The notes beneath the pieces are model-generated. The model did not search any database and was not told the DNA's origin. It saw only the letters and a program-made list of their open reading frames with translations. 64,000 nt of DNA, from the IMG/VR virus record IMGVR_UViG_3300048838_000238, positions 41,997-105,996 of that record; one strand, given 5' to 3'. The DNA is from a virus. This document shows, piece by piece, positions 7,128-63,151 of the stretch; position 1 is the stretch's first letter, and every line of letters starts with the position of its first letter. The translations under genes were made by a program, and so were the position numbers.

Positions 7128-7146
7128 CTATATCCCTAAGATATAG
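7128..7146. promoter_or_regulatory. Palindromic operator-like site CTATATC-N5-GATATAG (perfect copy)
   Basis: CTATATC CCTAA GATATAG, intergenic, upstream of 2583..7091; one of at least 16 copies. Confidence 0.7.
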
Positions 7147-7197
7147 CAAGACGAGGCTCGTGTGCGGCGGCTGGACGTGTCTAACTAGCGGTCCAGA

Positions 7198-7971
7198 TCA
7201 CGGGTAGTTGTACCCCAGCCGGTGCGCTCTGCCATACAGCGAGGAACTGCTGACGTAGTTGTAGGTCCAGGAAATCGGCCAATCGACCCACGCCTGCTTG
7301 CCGTCGCTCGCGACCAGTCTGGGTGTCCCCTCGGTAACGAGCGGCACGGAACTGGCGAGCTTACTGGGCCAGATCGGCGGCGGGATGGGCGGATATCCAT
7401 AGAGCCCGACCGCCGATCCCTGCTGGACGGCGCGTACGGCAGTGTATTGACGAAGAGTCTGTTCGACCGCTGGTCCGGTCAGCACGTCGATCGCGCCCCG
7501 CTGCCTGCCAGCTTCCGGCCATTGCACGGTTTCCTGGAACGATTTGACCAGATTTGCCAGCGACAGCGAGCCCGCTGCGTAGGGTATAGTTGCCTTGGCG
7601 ACGATCTGGCTCTGGCAATTCGTAACCAGCGACGCGCGACCTGGATCCGGAAAGTGCGGCGGCGAGATGATTTGCACCCCAGCTAGGGTATCGACCGTCT
7701 TTAGAGTCAAGTGCGTTTCGGTGCCGTTGGGGTGGCAGAAGATCAGATCGCGACCGCTGACCGAGTAGGCTGCTTGCAGAGCCGCCATTTGTGCTTTGAT
7801 ATCGGCCCGCCGTAACGCTTCGGTTGCCTTATGCGAGATTAGCCAGACCGTGATATTCCACGTTTCTTCTTCGGCCCACGCGGTGCCAGCATCCGTCAGC
7901 AGGGCTTGCCTCTGTGTGGTGACTCGCGTCGTGCCGACCGGGTGCGTGAAATTGCCGTATTTCAGGATCAT
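7198..7971 (-). CDS. Putative distal-tail-like structural protein
   Basis: 257-aa ORF in the tail module; palindrome copy at 7979..7997 directly upstream. Confidence 0.5.
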   Translation of the reverse strand: MILKYGNFTHPVGTTRVTTQRQALLTDAGTAWAEEETWNITVWLISHKATEALRRADIKAQMAALQAAYSVSGRDLIFCHPNGTETHLTLKTVDTLAGVQIISPPHFPDPGRASLVTNCQSQIVAKATIPYAAGSLSLANLVKSFQETVQWPEAGRQRGAIDVLTGPAVEQTLRQYTAVRAVQQGSAVGLYGYPPIPPPIWPSKLASSVPLVTEGTPRLVASDGKQAWVDWPISWTYNYVSSSSLYGRAHRLGYNYP

Positions 7972-8019
7972 GACGCGATTATATCAGATCGCTATAGCCT
8001 GCCGATGGCGCGGAAGCGG

Positions 8020-9750
8020 TCACGCGACGTGTCCAATCCTCAGTAGATTCGACGGCTCGATCCGATTAGACAGCCGAAACACTTCGGCGACGTAAGCCAC
8101 GTCTTCGGGGTCTGGCTGGAGTTCTCGAACAGCCTCTTCAGCCGTGCGAATCCAACCAAGCAGTTTGCCGGCCTGGACGTTGATCGCCAAGATAACTCGC
8201 TTTGCCACGCGGATGTGTAAATTTCCGTTCTGGTATGCCTTGGCGTCCATCAGCGGCTCGCCGTCCTGGAGACATAGTTCGTTTTTCTTGCCAGACGTCC
8301 AGCGGTAGTTAGCTGGGCTGTCCATACAGGCAAACCCGAGATTGTTGGCGACGGTCACGAAGTCCGAAAGGAACTCTATCGACCGCCGCGACAGACCGTT
8401 TACAGCATCGAAGGAATACTGGCTGGTATTGATCCCTCCGAACCCCTCAATAACGAGCCGGTAGTCGATCTTGTATTGAGTCTCGTCTTCGTGGAGGTAT
8501 CGCCAATTTCCCTTGGTGAACACCTTGTCGTTGCTCTTGTAGCGGTGGACGTTGGCGTGTTGCGCGAGTGACTTAAACAGTTCAACGAGCTGGTCGTCAA
8601 AATGATCACTAGCCCACTTGGAAATCCATATCAGCATCGACCGGACATTGCCTTCCGTGAAGTCTACGACAGTTTTGTTTCTGAGCGATTCGAGGAACGC
8701 ATTGCGTTGCTTAGTGGCAAGCCTCTTGGTGATGTCTTCTAAGTGCTCAAACAGGACTTGCCAGTATTTGTTCTTGAGACCGACGATCTTTGACCGCAGG
8801 CCGTCCAGGATGGCTTTTTTCGTGACGCCCAGTTCCTTTAGTAGCAACGGGTTGATTTTGACCACCTTCCGGTAAGTCTCGTACATCTCTGTCAACTCGG
8901 TATCGTAGGCATGGACAAGCGATTCGATGATATTGCCACCCTTAGCGACTTGCCGCAGCCAATCCTTATCCTCTTCGCACTCGTCGTCGATCTTACAATC
9001 GAACTTATCCAGTTCTGGAAGCATCTCTTCAATAGCTGAATTGAATGCCGAGTCTTTGTCGCGGTCTCCCATATCGAAGAGAACGATCTCGACCTTGGCC
9101 CGTGCTCGCCGATCGGCAGTCTCAAAGTCGAACTTGCCCAGCGACTTTGGCTTTAGTTCGAACTGGTCGATCAACTCTTGAATCTTCTGGCTGTCGCGCC
9201 AGCGTCGCGGAATGACCAAGTACACCGACTTGGCGGCGCACTCGCGCAGGATGCGATACGCCCATTCCTCGTACTCGCTGTAGGGCGGATTGCAGAAGAC
9301 GATATCGACCTGTTTGTCGACCAGCGTTTGCTCGTGGAACTCAGTGCCGATCACGACTATATGCTTTGGCATGTTCGCCAAATGGATCATCGATTTTTCA
9401 ACGGCGAACTGATCCAGTGTGATCGTGTTCCGTGAATGCTCGCCCTCGTCACTCAGCATCTCTTGCAGCTTGACCAGCGCCCGGCCGTCGCCAGCCCCGA
9501 TGTCGAGGATATCTAGCGACCCGTGACGACGATAGGCACGATCGGCTTCTCGCCGGATACTCTTGGCGATGACAGCAAGGATCTCATCGGTCGTGGGATA
9601 AAAAGCGTAATCTTCTCCGTTGGCCTTCAGTTCGTCAACTCTGCGACGCGTTGCTGGCCGAGTGAATATCCGCACCGGTTTGCGTGTTGTCCTCAGATTT
9701 ACTGGCGAGGCCAGTTTCGCAGTCGTGCGTGGATGTGGTGTTGCATTCAC
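8020..9750 (-). CDS. Class I SAM-dependent DNA amino-methyltransferase, DUF4942-like
   Basis: FYPT, ILDIGAGDG (motif I) and FCNPPY (motif IV), long helical C-terminus ending KAYQNGNLHI; exact start uncertain. Confidence 0.75.
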   Translation of the reverse strand: MNATPHPRTTAKLASPVNLRTTRKPVRIFTRPATRRRVDELKANGEDYAFYPTTDEILAVIAKSIRREADRAYRRHGSLDILDIGAGDGRALVKLQEMLSDEGEHSRNTITLDQFAVEKSMIHLANMPKHIVVIGTEFHEQTLVDKQVDIVFCNPPYSEYEEWAYRILRECAAKSVYLVIPRRWRDSQKIQELIDQFELKPKSLGKFDFETADRRARAKVEIVLFDMGDRDKDSAFNSAIEEMLPELDKFDCKIDDECEEDKDWLRQVAKGGNIIESLVHAYDTELTEMYETYRKVVKINPLLLKELGVTKKAILDGLRSKIVGLKNKYWQVLFEHLEDITKRLATKQRNAFLESLRNKTVVDFTEGNVRSMLIWISKWASDHFDDQLVELFKSLAQHANVHRYKSNDKVFTKGNWRYLHEDETQYKIDYRLVIEGFGGINTSQYSFDAVNGLSRRSIEFLSDFVTVANNLGFACMDSPANYRWTSGKKNELCLQDGEPLMDAKAYQNGNLHIRVAKRVILAINVQAGKLLGWIRTAEEAVRELQPDPEDVAYVAEVFRLSNRIEPSNLLRIGHVA

Positions 9751-10609: not shown

Positions 10610-10773
10610 CGTTCCGTCCTCGTGGCTTGGTTATATCTGATTGATATAGGTTATTCGCCGCGCGCTGAACAGTATTGGGACCGGCTGGTAAGAAATTGCC
10701 GGGAGAATCTGCAAGTCCCGACGCCTTATCCGGACACGAATGCGGACACCGTGTCCGGATAAGCCTGTCGCAA

Positions 10774-12576: not shown

Positions 12577-12832
12577 CGTGTTTCTCCTCGTGTTAGTTGG
12601 TTTCGTTCTCGCCGGGCTTGTGACCGGCCTATATCACCTAGATATCACCGCTTAGTTCTTGAAACTCCAGTCGGCGAGTTGCTTGCGTCTATAGGGTATT
12701 CGCCGCTGATATCAGGATCTTGGTCGGAATTAGCGGTTCTTTCCAGTGACTGAACACTCGTTCATCTACATTCAGACCACCCACTTTTGCTATCATCACG
12801 AAAGATACAGACGAACTCTACGGGAGACGAAC

Positions 12833-13774
12833 ATGAGACACCTTCATTTCCTGATAGTGACCGCGATTGCCGCGTCCGCGTTCGGTCAGGGGCTATCTCC
12901 AACAGACGCATATGTTGAAGCGCACCACCGGCACTACGAGGCGCGGCGTGCAGAACTCATAGAAAAGCTGGCCGAAGCGACCGCCGAATACCAGCCGATT
13001 CGCGATGCCAAAGTTGATCGCCGCGCGGAGTCGCTGGCTGCCTTGACGGTAACTTTCGGAGAAGGTGCCGACGCCGTCCAGTGGTTTGAAGACGAAAATG
13101 ATGCCGTCTACTTTAGAACAGCTCGCGAGAAACGCTCTGTCACCGAAAGGTACGAACGACTCTACATTGATCCACGAAAAAAGGAACTTGCCGACTTGCC
13201 ATTGACGTACACAGACGAGCGTCCGTCGATGCCGTTTTCTGGCTCGCACCCAGGAATCATCCGGTGGAAGCCTTACGTATTCCAGGTAATCGACGACGAC
13301 GAAGTGCTTTTGCGAGTCTTCAAGGACACCATTTTGTACTTCAAAGGCGTAGCGACTGAAGGCATGGTTGACGGCGAGTACATCAACTTAGATGGAGCGT
13401 ATCACAGTACCGGCACAACAACCTACCAGACTGCCTCCGGTGGATCGAAGACTGTCCGTGTGATCGAGCCGTTCGATACGTCCTCGGCTGATGCCATTAT
13501 CTCAGAAAAACACGTTGAATTCTTGGACCGTCTAACCGCCGAGATGAAGAAATTAACCGCCGCAAATAAGAAGGAGACGGCAGACATTCGCGAATCCCTT
13601 ACCCGCGAATTCACCGACATCACCGGCACATTCAAAGTGAAAGCCGAATACGCCGGGTACGCTAGCGGAAACGTCCGTCTCAAAAAAGAGAACGGCGAAA
13701 CCATTAGCGTTCCACTGGCAAAGCTGTCGGATACCGACAGACGGTGGGTCGCTGAACAAACCGCGAGGGATTAA
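12833..13774 (+). CDS. Secreted SHD1-domain protein (moron-like)
   Basis: Signal peptide MRHLHFLIVTAIAASAFGQ; C-terminal REFTDITGTFKVKAEY...VRLKKENGETISVPLAKLSDTDRRWV matches the SHD1 pattern; opposite strand to neighbours. Confidence 0.75.
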   Translation: MRHLHFLIVTAIAASAFGQGLSPTDAYVEAHHRHYEARRAELIEKLAEATAEYQPIRDAKVDRRAESLAALTVTFGEGADAVQWFEDENDAVYFRTAREKRSVTERYERLYIDPRKKELADLPLTYTDERPSMPFSGSHPGIIRWKPYVFQVIDDDEVLLRVFKDTILYFKGVATEGMVDGEYINLDGAYHSTGTTTYQTASGGSKTVRVIEPFDTSSADAIISEKHVEFLDRLTAEMKKLTAANKKETADIRESLTREFTDITGTFKVKAEYAGYASGNVRLKKENGETISVPLAKLSDTDRRWVAEQTARD

Positions 13775-16700: not shown

Positions 16701-18120
16701 TAGCCTGCGCCTTGGCGACGGCTTCGACTTGCGCGGCTGATACGCTCGCTGCCGCTTCCCGTTCTGCGGCTGCCGATTCACGGGCCATCTTCGTCTGATT
16801 TGTATAGAACTGCTTTTTCAGTCCTTCCCGTTTCTTTATGACGACTTCTTGCTCTTTGGCTGAAAGCTGCATGAACTTCGAATCGTCTACCAAGCCGGCG
16901 CGTTGAGCGTTCGCGACTCGCTTCTGCCACTCCAGCTTCCACTCGGCGGTTCGCTTGGCGATGTCCTTTTCTTCGCGTTCTCGTTCGCGAATCCGATCTA
17001 AGATGCCCTGCTCTCTTTGCCGGTTGTCGTAGCGGTCCTCGCCTGCCTCGTCCTGCGCTGCCTGGCTGACGACGGGCCGCGTCGATCGGCCACGAGGTGC
17101 ATTGCGTGACGTCGGCGATTCCGGCTGTCCTGTCGCCGCTGGAGGGCTTCCTGGAAGAGACGCAAGGATTCGCTTCTTGGCGTCGACCATCCGCTTAGTT
17201 TCGGCGATGCCGTGGTCCGCTTGTCCGGACTCGATGGCGCGGATTTTCCGATCGAGTTCAGCGGTCCATACTCCGTAGTCGCGAAGAATCCGCTTAATGC
17301 GATCCGTTTCCGATTCCTTGGTCGCGACCGCCGTGCTGCTCGGCGGAGGGACATTGGTAGGCGCGTCGTTTCTTGCAACGACGTCGACTCGATTTGCGGG
17401 GACGTTCGGCTTGCTCGGGGCCGGCTGAACGATCGGCGATTCCGGCAGAGAACCACGACCCGATTGGCTGCCGTACACTTCTGCCAAGATTCGTTTCTTC
17501 GCGTCGACCATCCGACGTGTTTCGGCGACGGCATGATCAGCCATGCCGGTTTCAATGGCGCGGATCTTCTGGTCGTGTTCGCCATAGGCAGCTTCGTGTT
17601 CGCGCAGTATCCGCTTCACTCTGTCGGTTTCTGCCTCGGGACCGCGTCCGCCGGCCGGCAAGTCCTGGACCTGCGGAACCCGATACTGATCACCCGGCTT
17701 GCTGGCGGCTGGCGTGCCCCGGTTGGCTGCTGTAACACTCGATTGTGGAACGCTGCGCTGCGGAGCATTCGCAAACGCCTTCATTTGATCGGTGGCGGAC
17801 TGAAAGACAGATCGAATCTGCCCCACGACAGCCGCGCCGGTCGCCTCGATGGCACTCTTCGCGCCGTCTCTCGCCGCCCGGAATGCCGACAGTTGTTCGC
17901 GGCCGAAACCGCGATTCAGCAACTCGACTTCCCGCTTGATCTGATCGCTCGCGGACGTTGCGTGACGAGACACATCGCGCATCGAGGACGCGATTGTCTG
18001 CTGCGTGGCAGTGACCTGCTTGCCTAAGTCCGATAAGACTTTAGAGGTTGCCGGATGAGCCTCGACGCCAACCCGAAAAAGAACGTCCGCGCCGCCGCCT
18101 TTTGTTTTTTTCTTAGCCAT
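13771..18120 (-). CDS. Tail tape measure protein
   Basis: 1449 aa, Ala/Gly-rich and coiled-coil, downstream of tail tube and chaperone genes. Confidence 0.75.
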   Translation of the reverse strand: MAKKKTKGGGADVLFRVGVEAHPATSKVLSDLGKQVTATQQTIASSMRDVSRHATSASDQIKREVELLNRGFGREQLSAFRAARDGAKSAIEATGAAVVGQIRSVFQSATDQMKAFANAPQRSVPQSSVTAANRGTPAASKPGDQYRVPQVQDLPAGGRGPEAETDRVKRILREHEAAYGEHDQKIRAIETGMADHAVAETRRMVDAKKRILAEVYGSQSGRGSLPESPIVQPAPSKPNVPANRVDVVARNDAPTNVPPPSSTAVATKESETDRIKRILRDYGVWTAELDRKIRAIESGQADHGIAETKRMVDAKKRILASLPGSPPAATGQPESPTSRNAPRGRSTRPVVSQAAQDEAGEDRYDNRQREQGILDRIREREREEKDIAKRTAEWKLEWQKRVANAQRAGLVDDSKFMQLSAKEQEVVIKKREGLKKQFYTNQTKMARESAAAEREAAASVSAAQVEAVAKAQAIQNQYTSSRRALMGSLAESTASVMQLARGIGMLGLVGDENMEDFVKGLAKLQGTFDVVVGGMQSIQRLSGVWTNLRSMMDAASAASAIGGTKSTAMTAALAREAVAANAAAAAYMRLNAGRGGGGAAGAAGNAATRFAASAAGRAAASGTASAAGIAAGRFTTGAATGAAGSAVSGEATRGVGNAAIKGAATGVAATAAKSALTGAGAAGTATAAGAATTGAAGAGAAGAGAATGGMTAATIGVPVAAAIAAVASSVLAGIVTKDFAKGISSSGFGGGMKQGSVGDNIATGEVKFMAMLDKMAAKTGLSSEARAGAIDALISPIGKLIPGLNGFGKAITDLTATSARVERAEKARADSKERMLKELEQHRREMDLERQRTEQRDELGFQENDVKRFVANADQEDKQSALDRKIAGEKRSLEHDRNPAEFAARSQKIAGLEKQRRDSGADFLSPEMLEKRTLLIKKQQDALNDLAKIRKQETEDLNSSGNVNADIRNLELKKQSAKGLSDNEKQSLDELTRKRDEADQKIQDAHARAIAAGKDRLAIENEITKAKLAANRAAIADLHREIELRGQIAEMERGRIDNARQKFGQMDVSDQKKLVLAAERVRKEGLEFDRTGMSKADRDKIGAAKTEYTAAQKELAESGDALKTLKTGKGNKFTDAQGELEAAREAQKKLLEKQESEKKDAFGFDKKQSPEAAKEQFAARQAAAKRIKEAQEAVRAASTESPDRKEKIKAAEERHAKAKERMAKAMNSRDMVQFDVAQTSQEKRKRDGEVNAIKAKQQAGMPISGDEQQKLEDAENRRRDAIASGLSREDRNILGSSGLRVGEDIQRRGFDQSARAGGFGRVEDILGGDERARANDADRNKRQLQDEVVARESQNRNTVQEHESRSRPAHDKLAEEISAKVTTKTDVNVTVVTDRDEVLRQIQNALNVNTDRDNQAILAEVSKMLAADKQTRNLQVTQVTASRKAGIPR

Positions 18121-19655: not shown

Positions 19656-20001
19656 CGTTGTCACTCCTTGTGGCTTCGCGGGCCACGGCTGCAACTCCAT
19701 CAGTTGCCGATTTACGCTTGTTTCTTACAGGTAATTCGCCGCAATCCGGCGAATCTTGGGAAGTTTTTTTCACGAAATCAGTGTACTATTCGCGAAACAG
19801 AACCGCCATCGCGCCGTCGGATCACCGCAACAAGAGCAAGAGCCAAAGCAACCAACTTTGGTTATCTTCAGAGACCTTTTTGCCGACGCCGGCAAGATGG
19901 TCCGTTTTAGCGACTTCGTTCACCGGACGTGGCGGCGCTGCGGATGGCGATGAAAACTTGTCCTTTAATGGAGGTCCGTTGTGACCCATGATTAGCTCCA
20001 G

Positions 20002-22654: not shown

Positions 22655-22754
22655 GCGGTGGCTTCCTTGCCGTGCTTAGATTTACTTCCGTGTGCGACTA
22701 GCGCCAGCCCTGAATATATCAGACCGATATAGGCGGCGATCTAATTATCTCCGG

Positions 22755-30600: not shown

Positions 30601-30619
30601 CTATATCGACGTGATATAG
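30601..30619. promoter_or_regulatory. Palindromic operator-like site (perfect copy)
   Basis: CTATATC GACGT GATATAG. Confidence 0.7.
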
Positions 30620-35289: not shown

Positions 35290-35342
35290 ATCAGCTATTC
35301 GCCGGTCGGCAGCCTATATCGGAAAGACATAGCAAAGAACGT

Positions 35343-39684: not shown

Positions 39685-40135
39685 TGACTTTTTTCCGAGT
39701 TCTTTGTTCGTCGCTCAACTCGGTCCCACCCGCAGTGAGTAACTAAAAGTTCTTTCACTGTGAGGGCCGGGGACATAAGTCCTGTGATCCTCACGCTTTC
39801 GACGGCGTTCCGCGACTGCTCCGACCGGTAAACGTATCGGGCATTGATCGCGCTCAGCCTTGCGGTGGCTGAACTGTATCAGTCGTATCCATCGGAGACT
39901 ATATCAGGTTGAAATAGCCAGTACAAGCAGATTTCTGACCGGCTAGTATCTATTCGCTATAGGCGGCAGGATCTTGGTAACACAGTTCCTGAACTGTAAC
40001 AGAGCCAGAGTTACTTAGAGGTGACAGCGTTACTACGTCTAGGTTTCAGTTCGCGCCGCTCCCGTTCTGGGCTAAGCTGTCGAGCGTCTAGCTCTCGATC
40101 GAATGATGTCCATGTCTCAAGGAAGGTCGTCGCAG

Positions 40136-43771: not shown

Positions 43772-43951
43772 TTACCCCGGCTGTTGGTCTGTTGGTGCCT
43801 TGGCGGATTCAAAGATCCGGCGTACCGTCCAGCGGCTGACACCGGCCGCTTCCGCAATCGCCTGCTTCGATAAGTCCGTTTCCGACAACATCTTGAGTAT
43901 CTTCCGCTCCGTCGGCTTGGGAGTCTTGTTGCCTCGCCCTCGTTTCAGCAC
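43772..43951 (-). CDS. Small HTH DNA-binding protein (59 aa)
   Basis: Manual translation ...LSKQAIAEAAGVSRWTVRRIF...; GGAG RBS, GTG start; palindrome at 43967..43985 upstream; below the ORF-track cutoff. Confidence 0.7.
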   Translation of the reverse strand: MLKRGRGNKTPKPTERKILKMLSETDLSKQAIAEAAGVSRWTVRRIFESAKAPTDQQPG

Positions 43952-44009
43952 GCCGCGTCTCCGTGACTATCTCATAGTGATATAGCGTTAGTATAGGCGA
44001 CGAACTGCT

Positions 44010-47468: not shown

Positions 47469-47629
47469 CTATTTCAACCCCCTGACCCCCGGCTGAATCA
47501 CTGATCTTCTCGGGTGCCATCGTCCATGTTTTAATTACTCGGTTCGACCGTTATACAACCCGCGTTACAACTACTTACGGGGCGGTCAGTTGCACCGATT
47601 ATAGCATGGTGATATAGGTCGCGACGGAG

Positions 47630-48391: not shown

Positions 48392-48962
48392 TCATTTCCC
48401 ATGCGGTTGAATACTGGACGTTTGCAAACAATGATGCAATGCCGGTAAGTTGCTTGTACCGATGAACGGAATCCAAATCGAGGCCGAGCTTCTCCGCAAC
48501 CTCTTCCTCGCTCATGCCTTGCTGAATTAAGGCACGAACGACGTCGGCATCCAAGTCTACCTGATGAAATCCGCGAGCGTTATTAAATTGAACTGTCGCA
48601 GCCATCCTCTTGGCCATCGTGTGCGGCAAACAAACAACTGGAATGTGCGACATATCCAGCCAGTCAGGTCCAGCAATTAAGTGCCGGTGAAACCCGTCTA
48701 TAATCACGAACTGGTCAGCCTCATCGCTCCAGATCGTGACCACGGGGAAGCAGAATCCGTTTTCAATGATGGACGTCTTTAGCAACTCCATTTTGTCGGG
48801 AGGAACGGAATTGGGGTTGTACGTGTTCGCGACTACCAGTCGCCTATTGACGAGCATGGTTTCAATGCACGGGATCGGGATGTCGATCGCCAGCGATGAC
48901 GACTTAATAGCAACAGACTCACGTCGATACCTTCTATAGTCGTCGGCTGTTTCGATAATCAT
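48372..48962 (-). CDS. ibrB: IbrB-like ParB/Srx protein
   Basis: ANTYNPNSV...SIIENGF...IIDGFHR...TVQFNNARG plus C-terminal HTH; ATGA-coupled to ibrA. Confidence 0.75.
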   Translation of the reverse strand: MIIETADDYRRYRRESVAIKSSSLAIDIPIPCIETMLVNRRLVVANTYNPNSVPPDKMELLKTSIIENGFCFPVVTIWSDEADQFVIIDGFHRHLIAGPDWLDMSHIPVVCLPHTMAKRMAATVQFNNARGFHQVDLDADVVRALIQQGMSEEEVAEKLGLDLDSVHRYKQLTGIASLFANVQYSTAWEMIDADTE

Positions 48963-50083: not shown

Positions 50084-50906
50084 CGGCTACCCGCAGACTC
50101 CAATCGCACGTTCTCTGGATGTACCAATGATCCACCTTCAATTCAGTGGTAAGAAACGGAATCCGTGCCTGTCCCGTCAAACTAAGGAAGTCGATCAGGT
50201 CAATATAGTTGTGGCACATCTCAAAGACGGTTCGTTCTCCTGCGATGGAGTCGTCTTTGAATGTGACAAGATATGGTAGCTTCATCCGGTTATTGCGCCC
50301 CACGAGCTGTCGATCCCCGGCCACGGCAGCCTTGTCAGCTCCGCCGATAAGATGCAAGTTACGCGGGATCGTGTGCGGGTCTTTAAGGCCGATGCCGTCA
50401 AACAATTGCTGCCGCTGCTTCTTATACTCCGCTATCGTCTTACTTGATACGGCAACACGTTCTTCAATGAAGACCGGGTGCCTATCGATGACACGGACAT
50501 CAACGTGCGACTTGAACTCGTCCGACCATCCACATCCCTTGAACCGGCTATTGGTGTCAAAGTCCATCAGAATCATCAGGTCGTTAATTGAGTCGATGAT
50601 CGGCAGCCACTGGAATACCAACTGATGACGAGTTTGTGACAGGAAGTGGCGAATGCAATTGTAAGTCAAGTCGCTTCGGTTCTGAGTTCTCAGACACTCG
50701 TTGACGACGACCAGAGTGTTTGAATCGATCTCTCTAAGCAACCGGTAGAATACCTTGTACTTGATGATCTGATGCCAATCGACAAACTCACAGCCATCCA
50801 GTTCAAACCAAAACTTACTTGGCGACAGCACGACCACTTTGCGGCCTTCTGCGTGTTCTCGCACGATCTCAGCCTTATCGGAATTGTGAACGCCAAGATA
50901 GATCAT
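50061..50906 (-). CDS. Hypothetical protein, possibly a degenerate helicase-like fold
   Basis: 281 aa, coupled to both neighbours; LVVVNEC resembles a degenerate DExx motif. Confidence 0.6.
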   Translation of the reverse strand: MIYLGVHNSDKAEIVREHAEGRKVVVLSPSKFWFELDGCEFVDWHQIIKYKVFYRLLREIDSNTLVVVNECLRTQNRSDLTYNCIRHFLSQTRHQLVFQWLPIIDSINDLMILMDFDTNSRFKGCGWSDEFKSHVDVRVIDRHPVFIEERVAVSSKTIAEYKKQRQQLFDGIGLKDPHTIPRNLHLIGGADKAAVAGDRQLVGRNNRMKLPYLVTFKDDSIAGERTVFEMCHNYIDLIDFLSLTGQARIPFLTTELKVDHWYIQRTCDWSLRVADAYAKIS

Positions 50907-51496
50907 TGAATCGCCTTCAACCGCTTCGCACATTCCAATGATCGCTTCTCATTCAACTCGATAGCTGCAACTCGCATCCCGACGTCCATGAACTTCTTGA
51001 GCATCTTTCCCTTGCCAGCGCAAACATCAGCCACTGTCCGACAGCCCTGCCGAAGGAACCATCCAGATAATGCCGTCGTTGCGTCGCGGCTATCCTTCAG
51101 TTGCGGTGCGATCGATGGATCGCCTTGCCTTGAAGCAACGATCTGATAGTTGTTTCCGGCGTAGTAGTTGGTTTGCCATCCGACTTGGCTTCCATATCCA
51201 ACGTCATACAAAGCGTTCATCCAATGGCGAGACTCAGGAACGCCGGTCTTCAGGTAAACCCATGCTGGATTAGAGCGTTCGACAACGCCAATCAGTTCTT
51301 CGCAGAACCGCGACCAGTCTTGCTCAACTCCAGATTTACGACTCCAGTACGTCAGATTCCCTTGCCTCCAAGGAGGATCGATGGCAAGTAGATCGGCATT
51401 CAGACTCGTGCCGTAAAAACTGCCGCAGTAGACCTCGGATCGATCACTTCTGCCAGTAAACCGAGTCCCACTTGGTTCTCTCAGCAATGACATCAT
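50903..51496 (-). CDS. Small amino-methyltransferase-like protein
   Basis: IDPPW (motif IV) before VADVCAGKG...AIEL (motif I), beta-class order; start uncertain. Confidence 0.65.
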   Translation of the reverse strand: MMSLLREPSGTRFTGRSDRSEVYCGSFYGTSLNADLLAIDPPWRQGNLTYWSRKSGVEQDWSRFCEELIGVVERSNPAWVYLKTGVPESRHWMNALYDVGYGSQVGWQTNYYAGNNYQIVASRQGDPSIAPQLKDSRDATTALSGWFLRQGCRTVADVCAGKGKMLKKFMDVGMRVAAIELNEKRSLECAKRLKAIQ

Positions 51497-51869
51497 TTGG
51501 GATTGAGTAGACAAGGTGCGTCGTCCCCATCTTGAACTTTTTGAGGTGAACAAAACCAAGGGATTCAAATAGCGATGGTCGGAATGCAAAAGTATCTAGC
51601 TTCTTGGCGGACGTGTTTTGGCAACCGTACGCAAACCGGTGCTCAACAAGCAGCTTACCGAGCCCCTGGCAGCGAAACTCTGGTGCCACCCAGCATCCGC
51701 ACAAGCGTACCGCGATGCTGTTTAGCTTTCGAAGGCAACCGATAGCAGGCTTTCCGTCGACAACAAAGATGATGTCTCGTTGCCGGATCGATACGCGATC
51801 GCGTTTTGCTTTCGCGACCAAGCCGCTTGCGACTGCAAGATCAAATGGTATCTGAAGAACCTTCAACAT
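51444..51869 (-). CDS. GNAT family acetyltransferase
   Basis: WVAPEFRCQGLG acetyl-CoA motif, FESLGF. Confidence 0.8.
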   Translation of the reverse strand: MLKVLQIPFDLAVASGLVAKAKRDRVSIRQRDIIFVVDGKPAIGCLRKLNSIAVRLCGCWVAPEFRCQGLGKLLVEHRFAYGCQNTSAKKLDTFAFRPSLFESLGFVHLKKFKMGTTHLVYSIPNDVIAERTKWDSVYWQK

Positions 51870-52537
51870 GGAACTACGATCTCTCGGAAGCGATCCGGGT
51901 GCCACCTCGGCGGCTGGCAGGCTCCGAACCACCGCTTGAATCCGGTCAAGTCAGGCGGCAATTTGTCACACCACGGCAAGGCACGCATAAGCAGTGTCCC
52001 GGCCTCGCATGGCGCGAACCAACTCCAGTCGTGTTCGACTTCCACGGCAGTCCATTCACTCACCCGACCAAATCCTTGAGAGCGTTTATGGCCGATGGAA
52101 TGGACCGAGTCAAGCAGGGACAACAGCGTCCGTCGCTCCGAGCCCCCGACGAACCACACCACGCGATCACAGTCTCTTAGTCGCAACGGCAAGCGATAGC
52201 TCTTGTACGTGGCATTTCCGACTGCTACACACAGTCTCTTGTCTGGCGACAAGACGTCGGCATATTCGACAGCCAGCCGCTTGGCGAATCTTTCCACCCG
52301 ATCCCTGGCGGGCGACAGGATCGGCGCCGAACATCGCGGGATATTATTCACTCCGCCTATCGCGCCTCGCAAGCACGGAATATGAATCTCTCCCGGCGGC
52401 GGTGCCGGTGCGCTCCGAACAATGCGGCTTGCCAAGCCTAGCCGCTGGCTCATCTCGTACTCCAGAAGTGAATCTAGGTACGGGGCGTCGCCAGCCAGCG
52501 GGCTCGACAGGCAGGCCGTGACTTTCCAGTTAGCCAT
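51863..52537 (-). CDS. csf3: Type IV CRISPR Cas5-like RAMP
   Basis: LSSPL...YLDSLL, YKSYRLPL, G-rich loop IGHKRSQGFGRV, PPRWHP. Confidence 0.8.
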   Translation of the reverse strand: MANWKVTACLSSPLAGDAPYLDSLLEYEMSQRLGLASRIVRSAPAPPPGEIHIPCLRGAIGGVNNIPRCSAPILSPARDRVERFAKRLAVEYADVLSPDKRLCVAVGNATYKSYRLPLRLRDCDRVVWFVGGSERRTLLSLLDSVHSIGHKRSQGFGRVSEWTAVEVEHDWSWFAPCEAGTLLMRALPWCDKLPPDLTGFKRWFGACQPPRWHPDRFREIVVPC

Positions 52538-53423
52538 TAGATGCCGCCTTGCTCGTTTTGCGTCCGCGCGGCGACACCGTGACGAACGCCTCGTTTAGCC
52601 ATTGAACGCACTCGTCACGATTGGCGTCGACGTGCGACACGTAATCCAGCAACAGCGAATCGTCACCGTCATCCATGTTCACGAACGACATCCTCAGTCT
52701 GCCATGCCCTATCCGTGATTGCCCTCCGATCGTTCCCCCTGAATCCTGCCACAACCGCAGAGACAATCGCAGGCAGCCCAACTCCAGTTCATTGACGTGC
52801 TTCAATACGAAGCCGTGATGAAACACCGCCCCTCGACCAACGGCTTGGCCGGAGTAGATCATCAGACTGGAGGTGTCTCCGTCTTGCGTCTCAGCTTGTC
52901 CCAACTTCGCAGCGTCACCACGGGTGTACTGATATCCGCTCGCGAACCGCTCGGCTGACCAGAGTCTTGCCGTCGGAAAGTCCGCGATCATACTGGCTAA
53001 CGACTCGCGGTTCTCTTCACACACTAGTACCCCGCGCCACACGTCCATCGATCCGGCAAGTATCTGGTTCGGCAGCGATCCTCCGCACAATCGCAGCAAC
53101 GGAAATAATCGATGGCAATCGGCGATGCGACGGGTATTCTCTTGCGCCGTCGATTGTGTGAGGTTCCCACCGTGCAACAGGAAGTTCAGTTGCGGAAGCG
53201 ACAGTTTGCCTCGCAACCCCAGGCGATCAATCAGCCACATCGCGCCGGGCTCACGAACGAACCGGTGACGGATTGCGTTGCCGCTCAGGAACGGGACGTA
53301 AGCCACGCCACAAGGAGTCGTCACCGGTTCGCGGGCTACAATCGCCTCGTTACCAGCCGTCCCGCTGGCGTGCGTAATGGGCGAGATGGCTTTCGATAGG
53401 CAGTGAATCGTGTACGTTTTCAA
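52530..53423 (-). CDS. csf2: Type IV CRISPR Cas7-like backbone RAMP
   Basis: SPITH, VPFLSGNAIRH, LLHGGNL, FPLLRLCGG, IGGQSRIGHG. Confidence 0.85.
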   Translation of the reverse strand: MKTYTIHCLSKAISPITHASGTAGNEAIVAREPVTTPCGVAYVPFLSGNAIRHRFVREPGAMWLIDRLGLRGKLSLPQLNFLLHGGNLTQSTAQENTRRIADCHRLFPLLRLCGGSLPNQILAGSMDVWRGVLVCEENRESLASMIADFPTARLWSAERFASGYQYTRGDAAKLGQAETQDGDTSSLMIYSGQAVGRGAVFHHGFVLKHVNELELGCLRLSLRLWQDSGGTIGGQSRIGHGRLRMSFVNMDDGDDSLLLDYVSHVDANRDECVQWLNEAFVTVSPRGRKTSKAASNG

Positions 53424-53875
53424 GCGGCACCTCCGATCTTGTCTTTCCAGCGGCGACGAGCCAACACCAAAACGGGAATGAGATGTGTCGTCAGATACTT
53501 CAGCCAGTCGGCGCGTGACTCTGCCGGTAGGTCGTAAAGCGATTGCAAAGCGTTAACGAAGTCGTCATCCGCGACCGCCTTGGCTGGCTCTGCTTTGATA
53601 TGCTCGCAGACGTGCTGTACGAACAGATCCAAATCGCCGTCGATTGTCTTCGCATAGGCCGACTGGATCGCGGTGGCGATGCGGTCCCAGAGCGTGAGAC
53701 GGTCCAGGTCAGACCCAAAGATTCTCGGCAGCGACGCGCAGAAATCGACGGCCAATTCCTTGGCGACGCTGACAAACCATTCCGGCTTGTCGGCGTCATA
53801 GTCGATCAGCCCGGCTAATTCTTGTCGCAGTCTCTCGGTATCAAGAGTCGGCAGTGGCGGTGGCAGGGTAGTCAT
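53420..53875 (-). CDS. cas11: Cas11-like small helical subunit
   Basis: 151-aa all-alpha protein directly upstream of csf2, as in type IV-B gene order. Confidence 0.6.
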   Translation of the reverse strand: MTTLPPPLPTLDTERLRQELAGLIDYDADKPEWFVSVAKELAVDFCASLPRIFGSDLDRLTLWDRIATAIQSAYAKTIDGDLDLFVQHVCEHIKAEPAKAVADDDFVNALQSLYDLPAESRADWLKYLTTHLIPVLVLARRRWKDKIGGAA

Positions 53876-54720
53876 CGTATTTTCTTTCCTGGTTGTATTG
53901 GTAATGTTGCGGCCAATTCCGGATCAATCCCTTTCCTTATCCGAGACGTCAACGTAGCTTTCCGAACGACACACAAGGGATGGCGAGACAATTCCGTAAC
54001 GGTAATCGTCTCGCCAAATGCGTCTACAACGCAATTTATGTCTGCCCTCCCAACAGGAACTGATGCCGCCTTTTCGATATCCCACCCATTGCAAATTCTG
54101 TAGGCAAGAGTTTTGTAGGACACCTCGCATCTGCTGTCTCTGCTTAATTCTGCTAAAGTCATTCCGATTCCAAATGCGATAATTGGTAGATTTCGGCTAG
54201 TGTTATTTGCCTGTTGTGACTTTGTTGCCCATCGGCAGTTGCAAGGTTCGTAGTTACCGTCATTGTCCTTGCGATCTATTTCGTGCTTTGGGGGTCTCTT
54301 CCCCATGTCGGCAAGAAAGTTACTGAACCCGTCTATTCCAGTCCATCGCTCGCAAACTGTAATCCCTCTTCCGCCGTAATGGCGATATGCGTCATGCGAC
54401 GGCCTGTAGCATCTTGCCTTCATGTTCATCCACACAATCCATTCTGGAGAATTGGTTTGCCCATGAGACGTGTTGCGTTTCCTAGTTGTCTCACTTCCGG
54501 CACACCCACAGCTTTTAGAGTTACCGCTTTTAAGGTTGTATCCATCGACGACAGTTAATGACCCACACAAGCACTCGCACAGCCACTTACATTTTGACTG
54601 TGCGTCCCGGCCATGAAAGTTCTTCACAGTCAGCCTGCCGAACTTCGTTCCGCATAAATCATTTTTTGGCTGTCGGTATTGGTTCGGTGACGGTGTCGCG
54701 GTATTGTCTAAAGCAGACAT
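53872..54720 (-). CDS. HNH-type homing endonuclease inside the cas operon
   Basis: FGRLTV...WLCECLCG...SCGC...YGGRGITVCERW...IDRKDNDGNYEPCNCRWAT; AT-rich, own AAGGAG RBS. Confidence 0.85.
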   Translation of the reverse strand: MSALDNTATPSPNQYRQPKNDLCGTKFGRLTVKNFHGRDAQSKCKWLCECLCGSLTVVDGYNLKSGNSKSCGCAGSETTRKRNTSHGQTNSPEWIVWMNMKARCYRPSHDAYRHYGGRGITVCERWTGIDGFSNFLADMGKRPPKHEIDRKDNDGNYEPCNCRWATKSQQANNTSRNLPIIAFGIGMTLAELSRDSRCEVSYKTLAYRICNGWDIEKAASVPVGRADINCVVDAFGETITVTELSRHPLCVVRKATLTSRIRKGIDPELAATLPIQPGKKIR

Positions 54721-54748
54721 GACATTGCTCCTTGTTAGCGTGTCGTGT

Positions 54749-55480
54749 TTAGAAGAGCGTTGGCCGGAATCCAACGCTCTTCGCATTTTCTCCTATCGTC
54801 TGTGGATACACAAGAAGGCACTCGCTTCGAGGCGGGCAGAGCCACAGACTAAGACGACTAAGTGGTTCGGTGGCCACGGCGAGCCACGCCGATAGCCATT
54901 GGTCAGAATCGTAATGTTCGACAACGCGGATTTGCTGCATGAATGACAGTCCAGCGTCCAACGCCGGCTTTCCGGTCACTGCCGCGATCCGCTGGCATAA
55001 GTCAACTCGGTCGCGAAGTCCCGGTAGACCGTAATCGATCCGTTCACCTTCAAGAGTAACGGTCGGATGCTTCTGATCGTGACACACGACTGCGCGGTAG
55101 AGTAGATGCTTCTGTCCGCTGTCGCTGATACAAATCACAAACGGAGGTGGTGGCGGATACAGGCATACGCTCAGTAGCCAATCGCGATGAGACTTCGTCG
55201 CCGCGATCCGCTTTCCATTAGCCACTACCCACGAGTAACAGCGGACCTTCTGCCCATCTCGCGACGTCCCGTCGTGAAACTGAACGCTAGTCGATTCAGC
55301 CTGACTGGCAACGCATCCTCGACATACGTGAGCCGCTTGCGTCACGGTATCGAGCCCTGTAAACGAACTCTTAACGAAGTCTCGCGACAGCGTTTCACCG
55401 TCACACTGGCCGCCGCAAAAGAAGCAGCGGCAGTTGCCGGTTTCAAAATGGCCGTTCCAGAGTTGTGGTGCGGTTTGCAT
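54749..55480 (-). CDS. csf1: Type IV CRISPR large subunit
   Basis: CFFC...CRGC zinc motif and PPPPFVICISDSGQKHLLY signature; TAATG coupling. Confidence 0.75.
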   Translation of the reverse strand: MQTAPQLWNGHFETGNCRCFFCGGQCDGETLSRDFVKSSFTGLDTVTQAAHVCRGCVASQAESTSVQFHDGTSRDGQKVRCYSWVVANGKRIAATKSHRDWLLSVCLYPPPPPFVICISDSGQKHLLYRAVVCHDQKHPTVTLEGERIDYGLPGLRDRVDLCQRIAAVTGKPALDAGLSFMQQIRVVEHYDSDQWLSAWLAVATEPLSRLSLWLCPPRSECLLVYPQTIGENAKSVGFRPTLF

Positions 55481-56055
55481 TAATTGCTCGGCATATCGCA
55501 TTCGTGACGTGGCTTGACGCAACCATCCTCAAGATCAACACACCAGCCGTCCGGGACTCCGCCGTTCTTTACGGTCGATTCGTCTCGCTTCGACTTCTCG
55601 ATGAAGCGGCGGATTCCACCAACCGTCTGATAGACCATGCGTCCGGTCGACCGCCCATAGTTACCACGCTCTTCGCGTGCTTCGTATCGCTTCACCCATT
55701 TGCAATCGGATTCAGCGGCCCAGAAGTCAATCGAGCAATCCAGAACGGTCAGCCACAGCTTGCCGGTCTTATCCGACCGTCCAATGACGTAGTAGGTGCG
55801 ACCCTTATACTCGACTTTGCCAGTGCATTGTCGATCGGCCAGTTCCTTCTTGTCGGGCTCGATGGTCTTGCCGTCCATGCCTCCGACGAGTGATTCGATC
55901 TGGCTGGCCTTGGCCGCGCCGATCCACCATTGCTTGCGGTCGCCATCCCAGTGACAACCGGCTGACTTGAGTTGCGACTTAATGGGGAACGTATTCCCCA
56001 CGACATAGATGCGGGCTCCGACCTTTTCCGTTCCGATGGACATGACGGCTGACAT
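55480..56055 (-). CDS. Hypothetical protein, first gene of the cas operon
   Basis: GNTFPIKSQLKSAGCHWDGDRKQWW N-terminal motif; AGGAG RBS; palindrome at 56088..56106 upstream. Confidence 0.65.
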   Translation of the reverse strand: MSAVMSIGTEKVGARIYVVGNTFPIKSQLKSAGCHWDGDRKQWWIGAAKASQIESLVGGMDGKTIEPDKKELADRQCTGKVEYKGRTYYVIGRSDKTGKLWLTVLDCSIDFWAAESDCKWVKRYEAREERGNYGRSTGRMVYQTVGGIRRFIEKSKRDESTVKNGGVPDGWCVDLEDGCVKPRHECDMPSN

Positions 56056-56087: not shown

Positions 56088-56138
56088 CTACATCACACTG
56101 ATATATGTAATTCGCTGGCCAGTCAGGATATTGGCCAA
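56088..56138 (-). promoter_or_regulatory. Promoter-like motif plus palindrome heading the cas/ibr operon
   Basis: TTGGCC-N17-GCGAAT on the minus strand, followed by the palindrome CTACATC-N5-GATATAT. Confidence 0.5.
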
Positions 56139-56165
56139 CCGCTGAAAAGAATCTGGAAAAAGCCG

Positions 56166-57524: not shown

Positions 57525-57527
57525 CGG

Positions 57528-58777: not shown

Positions 58778-58815
58778 TGCGTTCTCTCCGTGTGGTGATA
58801 TCTGATCGCTATAGG

Positions 58816-59928
58816 CTATTCGCCGCGCGAGCGCTGTTCTTGCATCAGTTCGCGGTATCTCTCGATCACTTGCTTCGCCGATGTGAACTTCACAGGAATG
58901 CCGACGGCGGTCCCCACTTCTTGTCTCATCGCGGCGATACTGCGAGCCTCATCTAAAGTCAAGATGCAGGTCGGCCAGCCTTTCGTGTACAGCAAGTGCT
59001 TCGGAAGCCACCGCTCCGCGTTCTCGCGAATCACCTGGACGCACTTGGCGCGATCTAGTCCAGAATGTTGCTCGTTGGTCAGGAGGTTCGGCGCTACATC
59101 CCCCAGCCACTTCGCTTGAAAGGCAAACGAAGAGTCGATTTCCAACTGAACCATCTGGCGGTACAACTCGTGGTTGTCCGGACAAGTGGAAGCCGCCAGA
59201 AGATCCGGCCGCGCCGACAAGATGCAGTAGCAGCAAGACACTCGCGATGCGCCGTACGTCACGTAGGCTTCGTGTAACGGGAACTCGCGATTAGCGTGCA
59301 AGGCGATAACATCGTCAAGAGTCCACTCGATGATCGGGTGCCAGTTGAATCCGTTCGTGTCGTCGCTCCTGCGGTACAGCAGAGACTGCGGGCTCGACAC
59401 TGGCTTCTTGGCGCGGCCGGGGCTTTCCTGGCGGCGGATACCAACGGCGTTGATAATCGTCTGACCGCCGAACCGTTTTTTAAGATAGCTACAGATCACG
59501 GCTGTCTTCAACTCGCTGGTGCAAAACCTCATCGAGGGCGTGCTCCAAGGCAGGATCAGCTTGACGCACTCCAGGTTTCCATATCGCCGGACGTTGTTGT
59601 CCCAGCGAGTCAACCAGCGGTCGAGCATATCGCCAGCCTTGCGACGAACCACGACCAGTTCCAGCCCGAGCCTGTCAGCCAGCTTTTCACATTGCGGCAA
59701 GCTGGCCTTCCACTCAGTTCTGCCGAGGTCACTGTGAATCAATATCCGCTCACCACGATGGCCGACAGTGTCTAAGTGATCGATCGTCGCGAACGCCAGT
59801 GCATCGCTGTCCTTGCCTCCTGACACTCCGATGGCAACCGGGGCATGGTCCGCGACCGCCTTATCAATCTCTGGCGTCGTAGCGACGCCTGGCTCGCAGC
59901 CAGCCGTGAATAGTTTTGCTTGCTTCAC
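58816..59928 (-). CDS. PAPS-reductase family PP-loop protein with putative Fe-S cysteines
   Basis: VSGGKDS, RFCTSELK, GIRRQES..R, SRVSCCYC. Confidence 0.85.
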   Translation of the reverse strand: MKQAKLFTAGCEPGVATTPEIDKAVADHAPVAIGVSGGKDSDALAFATIDHLDTVGHRGERILIHSDLGRTEWKASLPQCEKLADRLGLELVVVRRKAGDMLDRWLTRWDNNVRRYGNLECVKLILPWSTPSMRFCTSELKTAVICSYLKKRFGGQTIINAVGIRRQESPGRAKKPVSSPQSLLYRRSDDTNGFNWHPIIEWTLDDVIALHANREFPLHEAYVTYGASRVSCCYCILSARPDLLAASTCPDNHELYRQMVQLEIDSSFAFQAKWLGDVAPNLLTNEQHSGLDRAKCVQVIRENAERWLPKHLLYTKGWPTCILTLDEARSIAAMRQEVGTAVGIPVKFTSAKQVIERYRELMQEQRSRGE

Positions 59929-59939
59929 GTTCTCTCCAG

Positions 59940-60320: not shown

Positions 60321-60361
60321 GCGTCGATCCTTGCGGGTGATATCTAACTGATATAGCCAAT

Positions 60362-61752: not shown

Positions 61753-61919
61753 CGTTCGGACTCCACGGAAACTTCCGACCGCATCTCTGCGATTATTCTC
61801 TCCGCAAGCTCTAGTCTCTTGATCGCTTCTAGCGCGATCGACCGTTGCGCGGCTTCTGTCAGGTAATGCGGTTCATCGTTCAGCACTTGGCAGCAATGTC
61901 GGAAATGAGCTTCGGTCAT
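61749..61919 (-). CDS. Hypothetical protein (56 aa)
   Basis: Manual translation MTEAHFRHCC...; GAGG RBS; palindrome at 61949..61967 upstream. Confidence 0.45.
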   Translation of the reverse strand: MTEAHFRHCCQVLNDEPHYLTEAAQRSIALEAIKRLELAERIIAEMRSEVSVESER

Positions 61920-62038
61920 GCGGCACCTCGTGTCGGTTTCCTGCCTGACTATATCGTACTGATATATCTAGTTCGCCGCGAGTCAGACGATCTTGGCAAC
62001 CAGTTTGAAAACTTTCTCAGCGGCAAAAATCGCCGCCG

Positions 62039-62404
62039 CTACTTAGCGCGGAAGTGATCGGCGGCCATGCGGATGATGACCCGCACTGCATCCGTCAAGG
62101 ACTCGGCCTTGGTCCTCGCGATGAAGGCATCCAAGTGCTCTCGCTGTTCCTCGGTAAGCCGCAAGACAAGCGGTTTCCCGGTTGAATAGGCCGCATCGGA
62201 TTCACGCAGATGCTTTTTGTAGATCGCGGTCGACTTCTCTACAGCGCCGCAGGCCCAGCGCAGAGAGTGAATGAAAGCGCTGTTCCATGAGTTCGCCCAC
62301 AGGGAATGGCGGAGTTGCTCGACTGTTTCCTGATCTTCGTCGTCCAGCCATATCGGGTGGAGCATCTTCGCAGGTTCGGATTTGACTCGCTTTTTCTTGG
62401 CCAC
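62039..62404 (-). CDS. Putative tandem ribbon-helix-helix DNA-binding protein
   Basis: PIWLDDEDQETVEQL and LVLRLTEEQREHLDAF...SLTDAVRVII. Confidence 0.5.
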   Translation of the reverse strand: MAKKKRVKSEPAKMLHPIWLDDEDQETVEQLRHSLWANSWNSAFIHSLRWACGAVEKSTAIYKKHLRESDAAYSTGKPLVLRLTEEQREHLDAFIARTKAESLTDAVRVIIRMAADHFRAK

Positions 62405-62508
62405 AGCGGTACTCTCGAAGCATCTGAGGTAGCCCCTAGACGGGCTACTCTACTCAGTGTGGCACCGCTTGTCTATCGCAATCTGAAAACCTCTCCAGAT
62501 TACCGCTC

Positions 62509-62820
62509 TTACCAGTCTGGATAATCGAGCCGATGCTGCGGAACTAGATGGTCCGGCGCGTCCCACCGCATCGTTCTTCCGTCTGGTAGCTTGTATCGTT
62601 GCGGTGCGATCAGCAGGGCGTCAGCAAGGGCTTGCTTCAGGTCGGAGTTCTGCTGAGAAGTGACTACCACGCAGAGCTTCAGGGCGTCTGACTCTGGCAG
62701 ACCGGTTCTCAACGCGCCGGCGACGAAGCAATCCGTGGCTTTCAGCTTGTCGAATTCGTCGCGGATTCCCTGGATCGATTCAAAGTCAAATGGCCCGGCG
62801 GATGGGTTGGTCATCGTCAT
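62509..62820 (-). CDS. Hypothetical protein
   Basis: 103-aa ORF. Confidence 0.5.
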   Translation of the reverse strand: MTMTNPSAGPFDFESIQGIRDEFDKLKATDCFVAGALRTGLPESDALKLCVVVTSQQNSDLKQALADALLIAPQRYKLPDGRTMRWDAPDHLVPQHRLDYPDW

Positions 62821-63083
62821 TGCAGTTTAGCTCCAGCGTCAGCAGACCCCAGTGAGTTGCCTCGATATTTGCCGTAGGCGCGAACGAACACCGCCATCTC
62901 GCGCCCGTCATCGTGCCAGTCTTGGATGATGGCGACGCACGGATCGGCTTCGATGTCGTCGCTGCGGACCAACGTCCTGACAAGACCCTGCGCCGCGACT
63001 CGTTGAATGGCAGCCGACAGTCGCATCGCCTGATAGCGGCCAGTTCGCGACTCGCCTTTTCGGTAGGTGGTGAGTTGGACCAT
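62817..63083 (-). CDS. Hypothetical protein
   Basis: 88 aa, palindrome at 63111..63129 upstream. Confidence 0.5.
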   Translation of the reverse strand: MVQLTTYRKGESRTGRYQAMRLSAAIQRVAAQGLVRTLVRSDDIEADPCVAIIQDWHDDGREMAVFVRAYGKYRGNSLGSADAGAKLQ

Positions 63084-63151
63084 GATGCGTGCCTTAGGTT
63101 TCGCTGTCGGTTGTATCTAGGTGATATAGGTTGTTCGCCGACGGCGCGGCA

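Follow-up and report, generated by a model that had tools for sequence, protein, structure and literature searches.

Probable operators of a phage-encoded repressor, set in register with phage sigma-type promoters, in a presumed temperate Pirellulaceae phage

In plasmid RK2 the ParB homologue KorB represses many promoters via about 12 palindromic operators, and with the phage repressor Arc two ribbon-helix-helix (RHH) units sit on half-sites about one helical turn (11 bp) apart, within an operator of about 21 bp that overlaps its promoter. Other RHH proteins are known from other settings: TraY and VirC2 serve the relaxosome as accessory factors, AvtR is a regulator of a few lipothrixvirus promoters, and to our knowledge none of the three is known as a genome-wide phage immunity repressor. 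A monomer of TraY amounts to a whole RHH dimer in one chain, its two beta-strands read the major groove, and both direct and inverted arrangements are used (PMC12117103). The repressors of Cluster A mycobacteriophages, e.g. L5 gp71 and that of TipsytheTRex, bind asymmetric 13-mers as monomeric helix-turn-helix (HTH) proteins, with the orientation of the site being essential (PMC9283540). The case dealt with here is a 19-bp palindrome, CTATATC-N5-GATATAG, that recurs through a window of 64,000 nucleotides (the whole stretch of DNA analysed), which is bases 41997-105996 of the 105,996-bp virus record IMGVR_UViG_3300048838_000238; the phage is labelled G000 where it has to be told from others. 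Coordinates are window positions unless marked genome, and as a key to those with the prefix L007, L007:15360-15640 is genome 35360-35640. The palindrome is probably the operator of a phage repressor able to silence almost all transcription of what appears to be a temperate phage of Pirellulaceae.

With the palindrome as search pattern, up to 3 mismatches allowed and the expectation taken from shuffles, the window has 15 copies vs 0.63 expected, a number that none of 100 shuffles reaches. The counts at 0, 1, 2 and 3 mismatches are 2, 6, 6 and 1, as against 0, 0, 0 and 1.15 in the shuffles, and the class with 4 mismatches is at chance (11 in the window vs 9.9). The original prediction, made from the letters of the window, had listed at least 16 copies. 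Of these starts 15 are recovered; the other, 39944, has 4 mismatches, overlaps the GCGAAT -10 box of a promoter at 39949-39983 and is rejected as a copy, while 58796, with 3 mismatches, is accepted because its position relative to a promoter is exactly that of type A, as described below. Across the whole genome there are 29 matches, of which 28 are credible. The claim of a fixed 5-nt spacing is borne out, with N5 at 25 sites and 0-1 at each other spacing from 0 to 12, and in the whole-genome check exact half-sites are almost never found apart from palindromes. Codon-based calling places 143 of 149 genes on the minus strand and leaves 11% of the genome as non-coding. Given that share, the fully intergenic location of 26 of the 29 genome matches has a binomial P of ~4e-22. 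Proximity to genes was correctly described, as 13 of the 15 window sites are located 7-59 nt 5' of a minus-strand start codon. Against both shuffled sequence and coding background the excess is thus real.

Where the original prediction saw a regulon it was right, and what it missed is that the palindrome is a module of a longer, strand-specific promoter-operator unit. Many of the palindromes are preceded, on the minus strand, by the promoter CCAAGAT-N12-GGCGAATAAC, which as a regular expression has 19 minus-strand matches and 0 on the plus strand, and as a weight matrix about 22 strong matches in the genome. Twenty of the 22 have a palindrome, and the two that lack one are both strong. Three arrangements occur. 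In type A, 13 palindromes begin exactly 3 nt past GCGAAT and, because the usual sigma-28 geometry is assumed, would span roughly -6 to +13; in type B, four palindromes are at offset -36, with the right arm itself being the -35 box; and in a downstream class three palindromes are at +10, +34 and +50 nt from the -10 box. Base-exact register with -10 or -35 boxes is seen for 17 of the 28. (A promoter-operator 17-mer, tried as a search query, gave a single match, in L005, that is due to chance.) The units in the window, and the one promoter there that has no palindrome, are as follows.

10631..10649, minus strand: type A operator, 3 nt past GCGAAT of promoter 10650-10684, with an estimated span of roughly -6 to +13
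56088..56106, minus strand: type A operator of the csf/ibrAB operon, promoter 56107-56141
58796..58814, minus strand: type A operator with 3 mismatches, promoter 58815-58849 within the 3' end of the upstream gene
61949..61967, minus strand: type A operator, promoter 61968-62002
63111..63129, minus strand: type A operator, promoter 63130-63164
35314..35332, minus strand: type B operator, right arm being the -35 box of promoter 35294-35328, a geometry that is the main class in the relative G305 (below)
39899..39917, minus strand: downstream operator, beginning 34 nt past GCGAAT of promoter 39949-39983
12629..12647, minus strand: downstream operator, beginning 50 nt past GCGAAT of promoter 12695-12729, in the divergent gap beside a plus-strand SHD1-domain gene
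19731..19765, minus strand: sigma-type promoter without palindrome, one of 2 in the genome

The phage has a sigma factor of its own.

genome 33115-33798: sigma factor gene, Sigma70_r2 match with E 5.7e-7, over the Pfam cut-off

Its weak resemblance to SigB/F/G and FliA points to the group-3 type, with the qualification that it fails the cut-offs of both the FliA_WhiG model (19.8 bits vs 189.6) and the SigB/F/G model (50.5 vs 234), only the sigma-70 superfamily model being passed. Two promoters and two operators lie upstream of the gene, and no coding signal is seen in a 62-aa open reading frame that separates the sigma gene from these tandem operators. Word-indexed search finds no second copy of the sigma factor.

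Comparative evidence comes from one relative, IMGVR_UViG_3300028840_002150 (G305; 102,420 bp, with terminal repeats), found through a homologue of the 121-aa ORFan that is considered below as the candidate repressor (exhaustive HMMER search, 14 homologues). By other routes, megablast against phages gives no close relative, cultured phages have terminase matches of less than 37% identity, IMG/VR gives no match to either the sigma factor or the terminase, and a capsid profile search adds no further members of the clade. G305 and G000 have 31 proteins in common, 25-54% identical and syntenic, and G305 has its own sigma gene and the same promoter in the form CCAATATC-N12-GCGAATAAC. The G000 palindrome is absent from it. 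A palindrome of its own, GATATT-N5-AATATC, is present in 33 copies vs 0.4 expected and with N5 only; 22 are in exact type B geometry, 3 are ~15 nt past the -10 box and about 7 are stand-alone. In both phages the ATAT cores are 11 bp apart. When sites are aligned on these cores, C-T-ATAT-C-N5-G-ATAT-A-G in G000 corresponds to c-G-ATAT-T-N5-A-ATAT-C-g in G305, so that both core-flanking positions differ between the phages, and do so symmetrically. Since promoter and geometry are the same and the flanks altered, the regulatory system appears to have been conserved while its specificity drifted, with most G000 operators seemingly shifted from -35 to +1.

Certain G305 promoters are doubly operated, with one operator at the -35 box and another ~15 nt past the -10 box (17277-17315, 25899-25936 and 64754-64791), and two G305 sites, 48868 and 48899, directly precede the ParB homologue, as 47599 does in the window. 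Another record with the exact palindrome, IMGVR_UViG_3300028891_000081 (G001), was considered as a relative and set aside, as it has no proteins in common with G000 and even its polB and nrdD genes contain the motif; the motif there is judged convergent or unrelated. G001 is 128,201 bp long with 41% GC, and its 28 copies (at up to 2 mismatches) have a conserved, oriented spacer, CTATATC-YCTCR-GATATAG, about half of them being within genes (those for a family B DNA polymerase, NrdD, a DNA ligase fusion and a 2033-aa DUF2341 protein). Apart from G001, the scan of IMG/VR for the exact palindrome gave only single chance matches.

How closely palindrome and promoter are interwoven raises the question of whether the palindrome is simply part of what RNA polymerase with the phage sigma factor reads, i.e. 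a -35 box and an added element located upstream or downstream, with no separate regulator. The -35 box, CCAATAT, does resemble a half-site and coincides with the right arm in type B and at the 22 G305 sites, and the CTAT of the left arm is also the conserved sequence past the -10 box in palindrome-free promoters. However, the palindrome takes five different positions relative to the promoter and is found in 8 places that have no promoter, two strong promoters do without it, and neither twofold symmetry nor strict spacing is a property of sigma recognition. With these features to be accommodated, a purely promoter function is very improbable.

A different type of function, at the level of RNA, has also to be weighed. 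The operon at 47630-56055, behind the type A promoter-operator 56088-56141, has NCBIfam matches, all sub-threshold and in this order, for Csf1 (E 3.4e-11), Csf2 (2.4e-7) and Csf3 (5e-4), together with an IbrA-like phosphoadenosine phosphosulfate (PAPS) reductase with DUF3440, the ParB-like IbrB and a second PAPS reductase. With the three csf genes in the right order and no array seen, it had been proposed that the palindrome serves as a 7-bp RNA hairpin, a handle for an array-less type IV-B Csf complex; a processing signal or a DNA cruciform would be variants of the idea. Perfect copies would fold, as RNA, at -6 to -7 kcal/mol. Yet minimum-energy folds (0 to -8 kcal/mol) contain the stem for only 14 of the 28 copies and no stem at all for 9, and of 40 departures from consensus pairs in the arms just 2 are Watson-Crick compensated. 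Moreover, at the 13 type A sites the transcript would begin within the left arm, and in G305 a transcript from the promoter lacks the right arm, since that arm is itself the -35 box. A hairpin or cruciform role is scarcely credible on these grounds, and the palindrome is an unlikely RNA handle for the array-less type IV-B Cas complex of the phage.

Whether the binding protein is that of host or phage is illuminated by the presumed host. A tyrosine integrase gene (E 6.5e-10; L007:14229-15359) adjoins the 5' half of a tRNA-Asn gene (genome 35360-35640) that resembles a phage attachment site (attP), and because of this pair the phage is read as temperate. Exact matches to 38 nt of the tRNA-Asn half occur only in 26 Planctomycetota genomes, mostly of Pirellulaceae (Rhodopirellula, Novipirellula, Rubripirellula), which points to that family as the likely host clade; the secreted SHD1-domain protein of the phage is consistent with such a host. 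A tRNA-Met is also encoded by the phage, at L007:17375-17448, within a small-gene operon upstream of attP. At up to 1 mismatch, the palindrome has 0 sites in 5 of the genomes that match the tRNA-Asn half. A motif scan of the presumed host family, as had been proposed, finds at the same stringency 19 sites in 301 Pirellulaceae genomes, no more than a reversed control, vs 16 in the 0.106 Mb of the phage. With the palindrome at background in genomes of the host family, the binder is most likely phage-encoded.

A tandem RHH protein and a 59-aa HTH protein had been named as possible binders together with IbrB and the other ParB-like protein, and the comparison with G305 separates them.

62039..62404, minus strand: gene for a 121-aa single-chain tandem RHH protein, the best repressor candidate, with no palindrome or phage-sigma promoter upstream
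43772..43951, minus strand: gene for a 59-aa Hin-like HTH protein, a weaker binder candidate

For the 121-aa protein, AlphaFold2 with an 11-sequence alignment gives a model (predicted local distance difference test score 86.2, predicted template modelling score 0.79) of beta-alpha-alpha, linker, beta-alpha-alpha, with predicted RHH strands at 13-20 and 77-83 and two helices after each; the single-sequence model has no decisive fold match. On structural search of the PDB, TraY of the F plasmid comes first, well ahead of the others (9f0x_E, Z 10.5, root-mean-square deviation (rmsd) 2.9 A over 101/113 residues), followed by a permuted single-chain Arc (Z 7.2), DndE (7.0) and AvtR (5.9), and dozens of RHH domains align to residues 74-121 with an rmsd of 1.1-2.5 A. 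All of the top 10 Foldseek matches are TraY chains, at probabilities of 0.97-1.00. At the level of sequence, the protein Atlas offers only leads to ParG, RHH_3 and Arc clusters, the closest homologues (44-54% identical) are on short contigs, and a profile of the protein finds no loci in metagenome and viral contigs and no homologue in 301 Pirellulaceae and 401 Planctomycetota genomes.

The homologue in G305 (E 8.6e-14, 28% identity) differs in its beta-strand residues. Support for it as the binder is indirect: it is conserved, and yet diverged, in the phage whose operator flanks have changed, and in both phages its gene is behind a non-coding gap with neither sigma-type promoter nor palindrome, a position outside the regulon that fits an immunity repressor made in the lysogen. 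In G000 the gene has hairpins on its flanks and an upstream match to TAGACA-17-TAGAGT. The 121-aa tandem RHH protein is accordingly put forward as the most likely binder, with belief and doubt about evenly balanced. It is now the best supported of the proteins that had been proposed. Two of the others have lost ground: the G305 portal gene is preceded by only a weak positional analogue of the 59-aa HTH protein, which lacks an upstream palindrome, and IbrB has no homologue in G305. An Xis-like HTH_17 protein also has none there. Searches of ~95 proteins with Pfam, PHROGs and NCBIfam found no CI-type repressor.

Sites of the parS or KorB type, on which a ParB-family protein loads, spreads and silences over long range, would be an alternative, and one that the original prediction had entertained in the form of parS-like loading sites. 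Two ParB-domain proteins are encoded, IbrB and a ParB-Zn-ribbon protein; the latter is 54% identical in G305, stand-alone palindromes are directly 5' of its gene in both phages, and KorB of RK2 is generally known as a precedent. The distribution of the sites is otherwise hard to reconcile with loading: they are 28 in number and dispersed with no cluster at a par locus, and the base-exact register of 17 with promoter boxes (+3 and -36), over the -35 box and the start site, suggests direct occlusion. Nor do the proteins fit well, as IbrB lacks a G305 homologue though G305 has the same system, the ParB-Zn-ribbon protein has stayed highly conserved while both operator flanks changed, and no HTH is detected in it. 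A ParB-family binder is therefore considered unlikely.

Not all palindromes accompany a promoter. Eight stand alone, seven of them in the window and one at genome 7894.

7128..7146, minus strand: stand-alone, 36 nt before the gene for a 1502-aa FG-GAP protein
7979..7997, minus strand: stand-alone, with 7 nt to the ATG of a 257-aa gene, in a gap of 48 nt
22714..22732, minus strand: stand-alone in a 100-nt gap of the structural region
30601..30619, minus strand: stand-alone and perfect, with a 61-aa minus-strand gene on one side and the HNH endonuclease gene, on the plus strand, on the other
43967..43985, minus strand: stand-alone, 15 nt ahead of the genes for the 59-aa HTH protein and the portal
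47599..47617, minus strand: stand-alone, before the ParB-Zn-ribbon and terminase genes
60338..60356, minus strand: stand-alone, filling a 41-nt gap

The gaps they occupy are of 41-161 nt for six of the eight, of 231 nt for 30601 and of 264 nt for genome 7894. A sigma-type promoter, sought at every register around the eight, is not found, nor is any additional motif that they have in common (TTRGACACGTC, shared by the regions upstream of 7128 and 7979, has just 2 exact occurrences). For six of them the stop codon upstream is 5-51 nt away with no terminator between, and packaging, head or tail genes are downstream of six.

Stand-alone copies are the place where a dual-function switch would be most at home, the binder repressing the sigma-type (early or middle) promoters and activating, or helping to form, late promoters at these eight copies, where an extended -10 element would be supplied by the right arm (TGATATAAT-like). 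Six of them stand in front of operons for packaging, portal, head or tail that are devoid of sigma-type promoters, which would fit, as would the sequences at 7979 and 47599, which are TGATATAAT and TGCTATAAT, and the equal distance to the start codon of stand-alone and type A copies. But the pertinent right-arm variants (A at 19, T at 20, TG at 12-13) are not commoner in stand-alone than in type A copies, a motif to accompany them is lacking, and sigma-70-type promoters are depleted in the window (4 vs 8.5 expected). With upstream stops just 5-24 nt from most stand-alone copies and no terminator between, read-through is in any case to be expected. A switch of this kind is doubtful.

With repression preferred, and the palindrome taken as operator, a possible course of events can be outlined. 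Two RHH molecules would bind head-to-head on half-sites whose ATAT cores are 11 bp, one helical turn, apart, each molecule being a TraY-like pseudo-dimer that reads one half-site via a two-stranded beta-sheet. Bound repressor would block access of sigma to the -35 box or, at the start site, formation of the open complex. The sigma gene, with its two promoters and two operators, would be doubly locked, and repression would in addition cut the supply of sigma. Stand-alone copies are probably roadblocks to read-through into structural operons, akin to stoperators. Repression is far more plausible than activation because the palindrome is found at five positions and because type A promoters function with the -35 box alone.

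The proposal of a genome-wide regulon of a symmetric DNA-binding protein has fared well, given the fixed registers, the strict spacing, the few compensations, the absence from genomes of the host family and the co-varying operator of G305. Several points nevertheless count against the reading as a repressor-operator system. Every mechanistic step is deduced from sequence, and the position of the start site is an extrapolation from sigma-28-type promoters. The upstream arm is more conserved than the downstream one (13 mismatches vs 30, P = 0.014), which a purely symmetric site does not predict. Assignment of the RHH protein draws on co-occurrence in only two genomes; that protein has no Pfam match and no sequence or profile match in the PDB, and the ParB-Zn-ribbon protein is also conserved in G305, with the 54% identity given above. 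The stand-alone copies, clustered as they are before structural operons, may be late promoters, and if the sigma gene needs sigma the start of lytic growth is unexplained. The fuller picture is offered tentatively, with rather more doubt than belief: a clade of large temperate planctomycete phages with a self-contained transcription system of phage sigma factor, one promoter type, a tandem RHH immunity repressor and ~30 base-exact operators on nearly every promoter, in one lineage of which the operator left the -35 box for the start site and its flanks changed together with the beta-strands.

Some further features of the genome deserve mention. The only convincing plus-strand genes are two.

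30651-31193, plus strand: HNH endonuclease gene with atypical codon usage, 32 nt from palindrome 30601
12833-13774, plus strand: gene for a secreted SHD1-domain protein with signal peptide, moron-like in appearance

A LAGLIDADG domain (intein) is present in a 1210-aa protein (40136-43768), read as the portal, whose C-terminal domain resembles inorganic pyrophosphatase (InPase, E 2.9e-42). An 85-aa phage protein (56435-56692) is pilin-like, with an N-terminal methylation motif of the prepilin type (N_methyl, E 1.1e-6). At each end of the genome (window 63722-64000 and genome 1-635) the sequence is a tandem array of 27-nt repeats, the encoded 9-aa unit being GAASNSGYS/R. A 127-bp 'direct terminal repeat' falls within this coding repeat, and for that reason may be an assembly overlap, the genome then being circular or permuted.

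Gene regulation is almost unknown for phages of Planctomycetota, and in this phage a complete circuit is legible in the sequence, with ~22 promoters and 28 operators besides the sigma factor and a repressor candidate. The variant operator of G305 together with its diverged repressor permits direct specificity-swap tests. If the interpretation is correct, silencing of the stoperator kind would extend to another repressor fold and to promoters dependent on a phage sigma factor, a tandem RHH protein would for the first time be a genome-wide phage repressor, and sigma factor, promoter and repressor would be natural orthogonal parts.

Relative to described systems, the closest parallel in layout is with Cluster A mycobacteriophages, where more than 20 repressor sites are spread across a temperate genome, in promoters (operators) and in short intergenic spaces (stoperators), the counterpart here being 28 (20 + 8), and where, as here, most of the genome is read in one direction and the sites keep to the transcribed side. 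The differences are in the site, which here is a 19-bp inverted repeat with a strict N5 and mild asymmetry of its arms, and in the candidate repressor, which has a predicted RHH fold and would act at phage-sigma promoters in a mostly base-exact register. P22 Arc and Mnt are likewise small phage RHH repressors; however, their chains of ~53-83 aa form homodimers or tetramers that act at 1-2 promoters, whereas in the present candidate both RHH motifs are in one chain and the operators number 28. TraY, VirC2 of Agrobacterium and AvtR of an archaeal virus have the same fold as that predicted for the 121-aa protein, with no detectable sequence similarity to it. With KorB and KorA of RK2 the parallel is one palindromic operator, in about a dozen copies at promoters and further off, that silences a whole mobile element. 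KorB, though, is a ParB-family CTPase; the present sites keep exact registers, and the ParB-like candidates are the poorer match to the comparative data.

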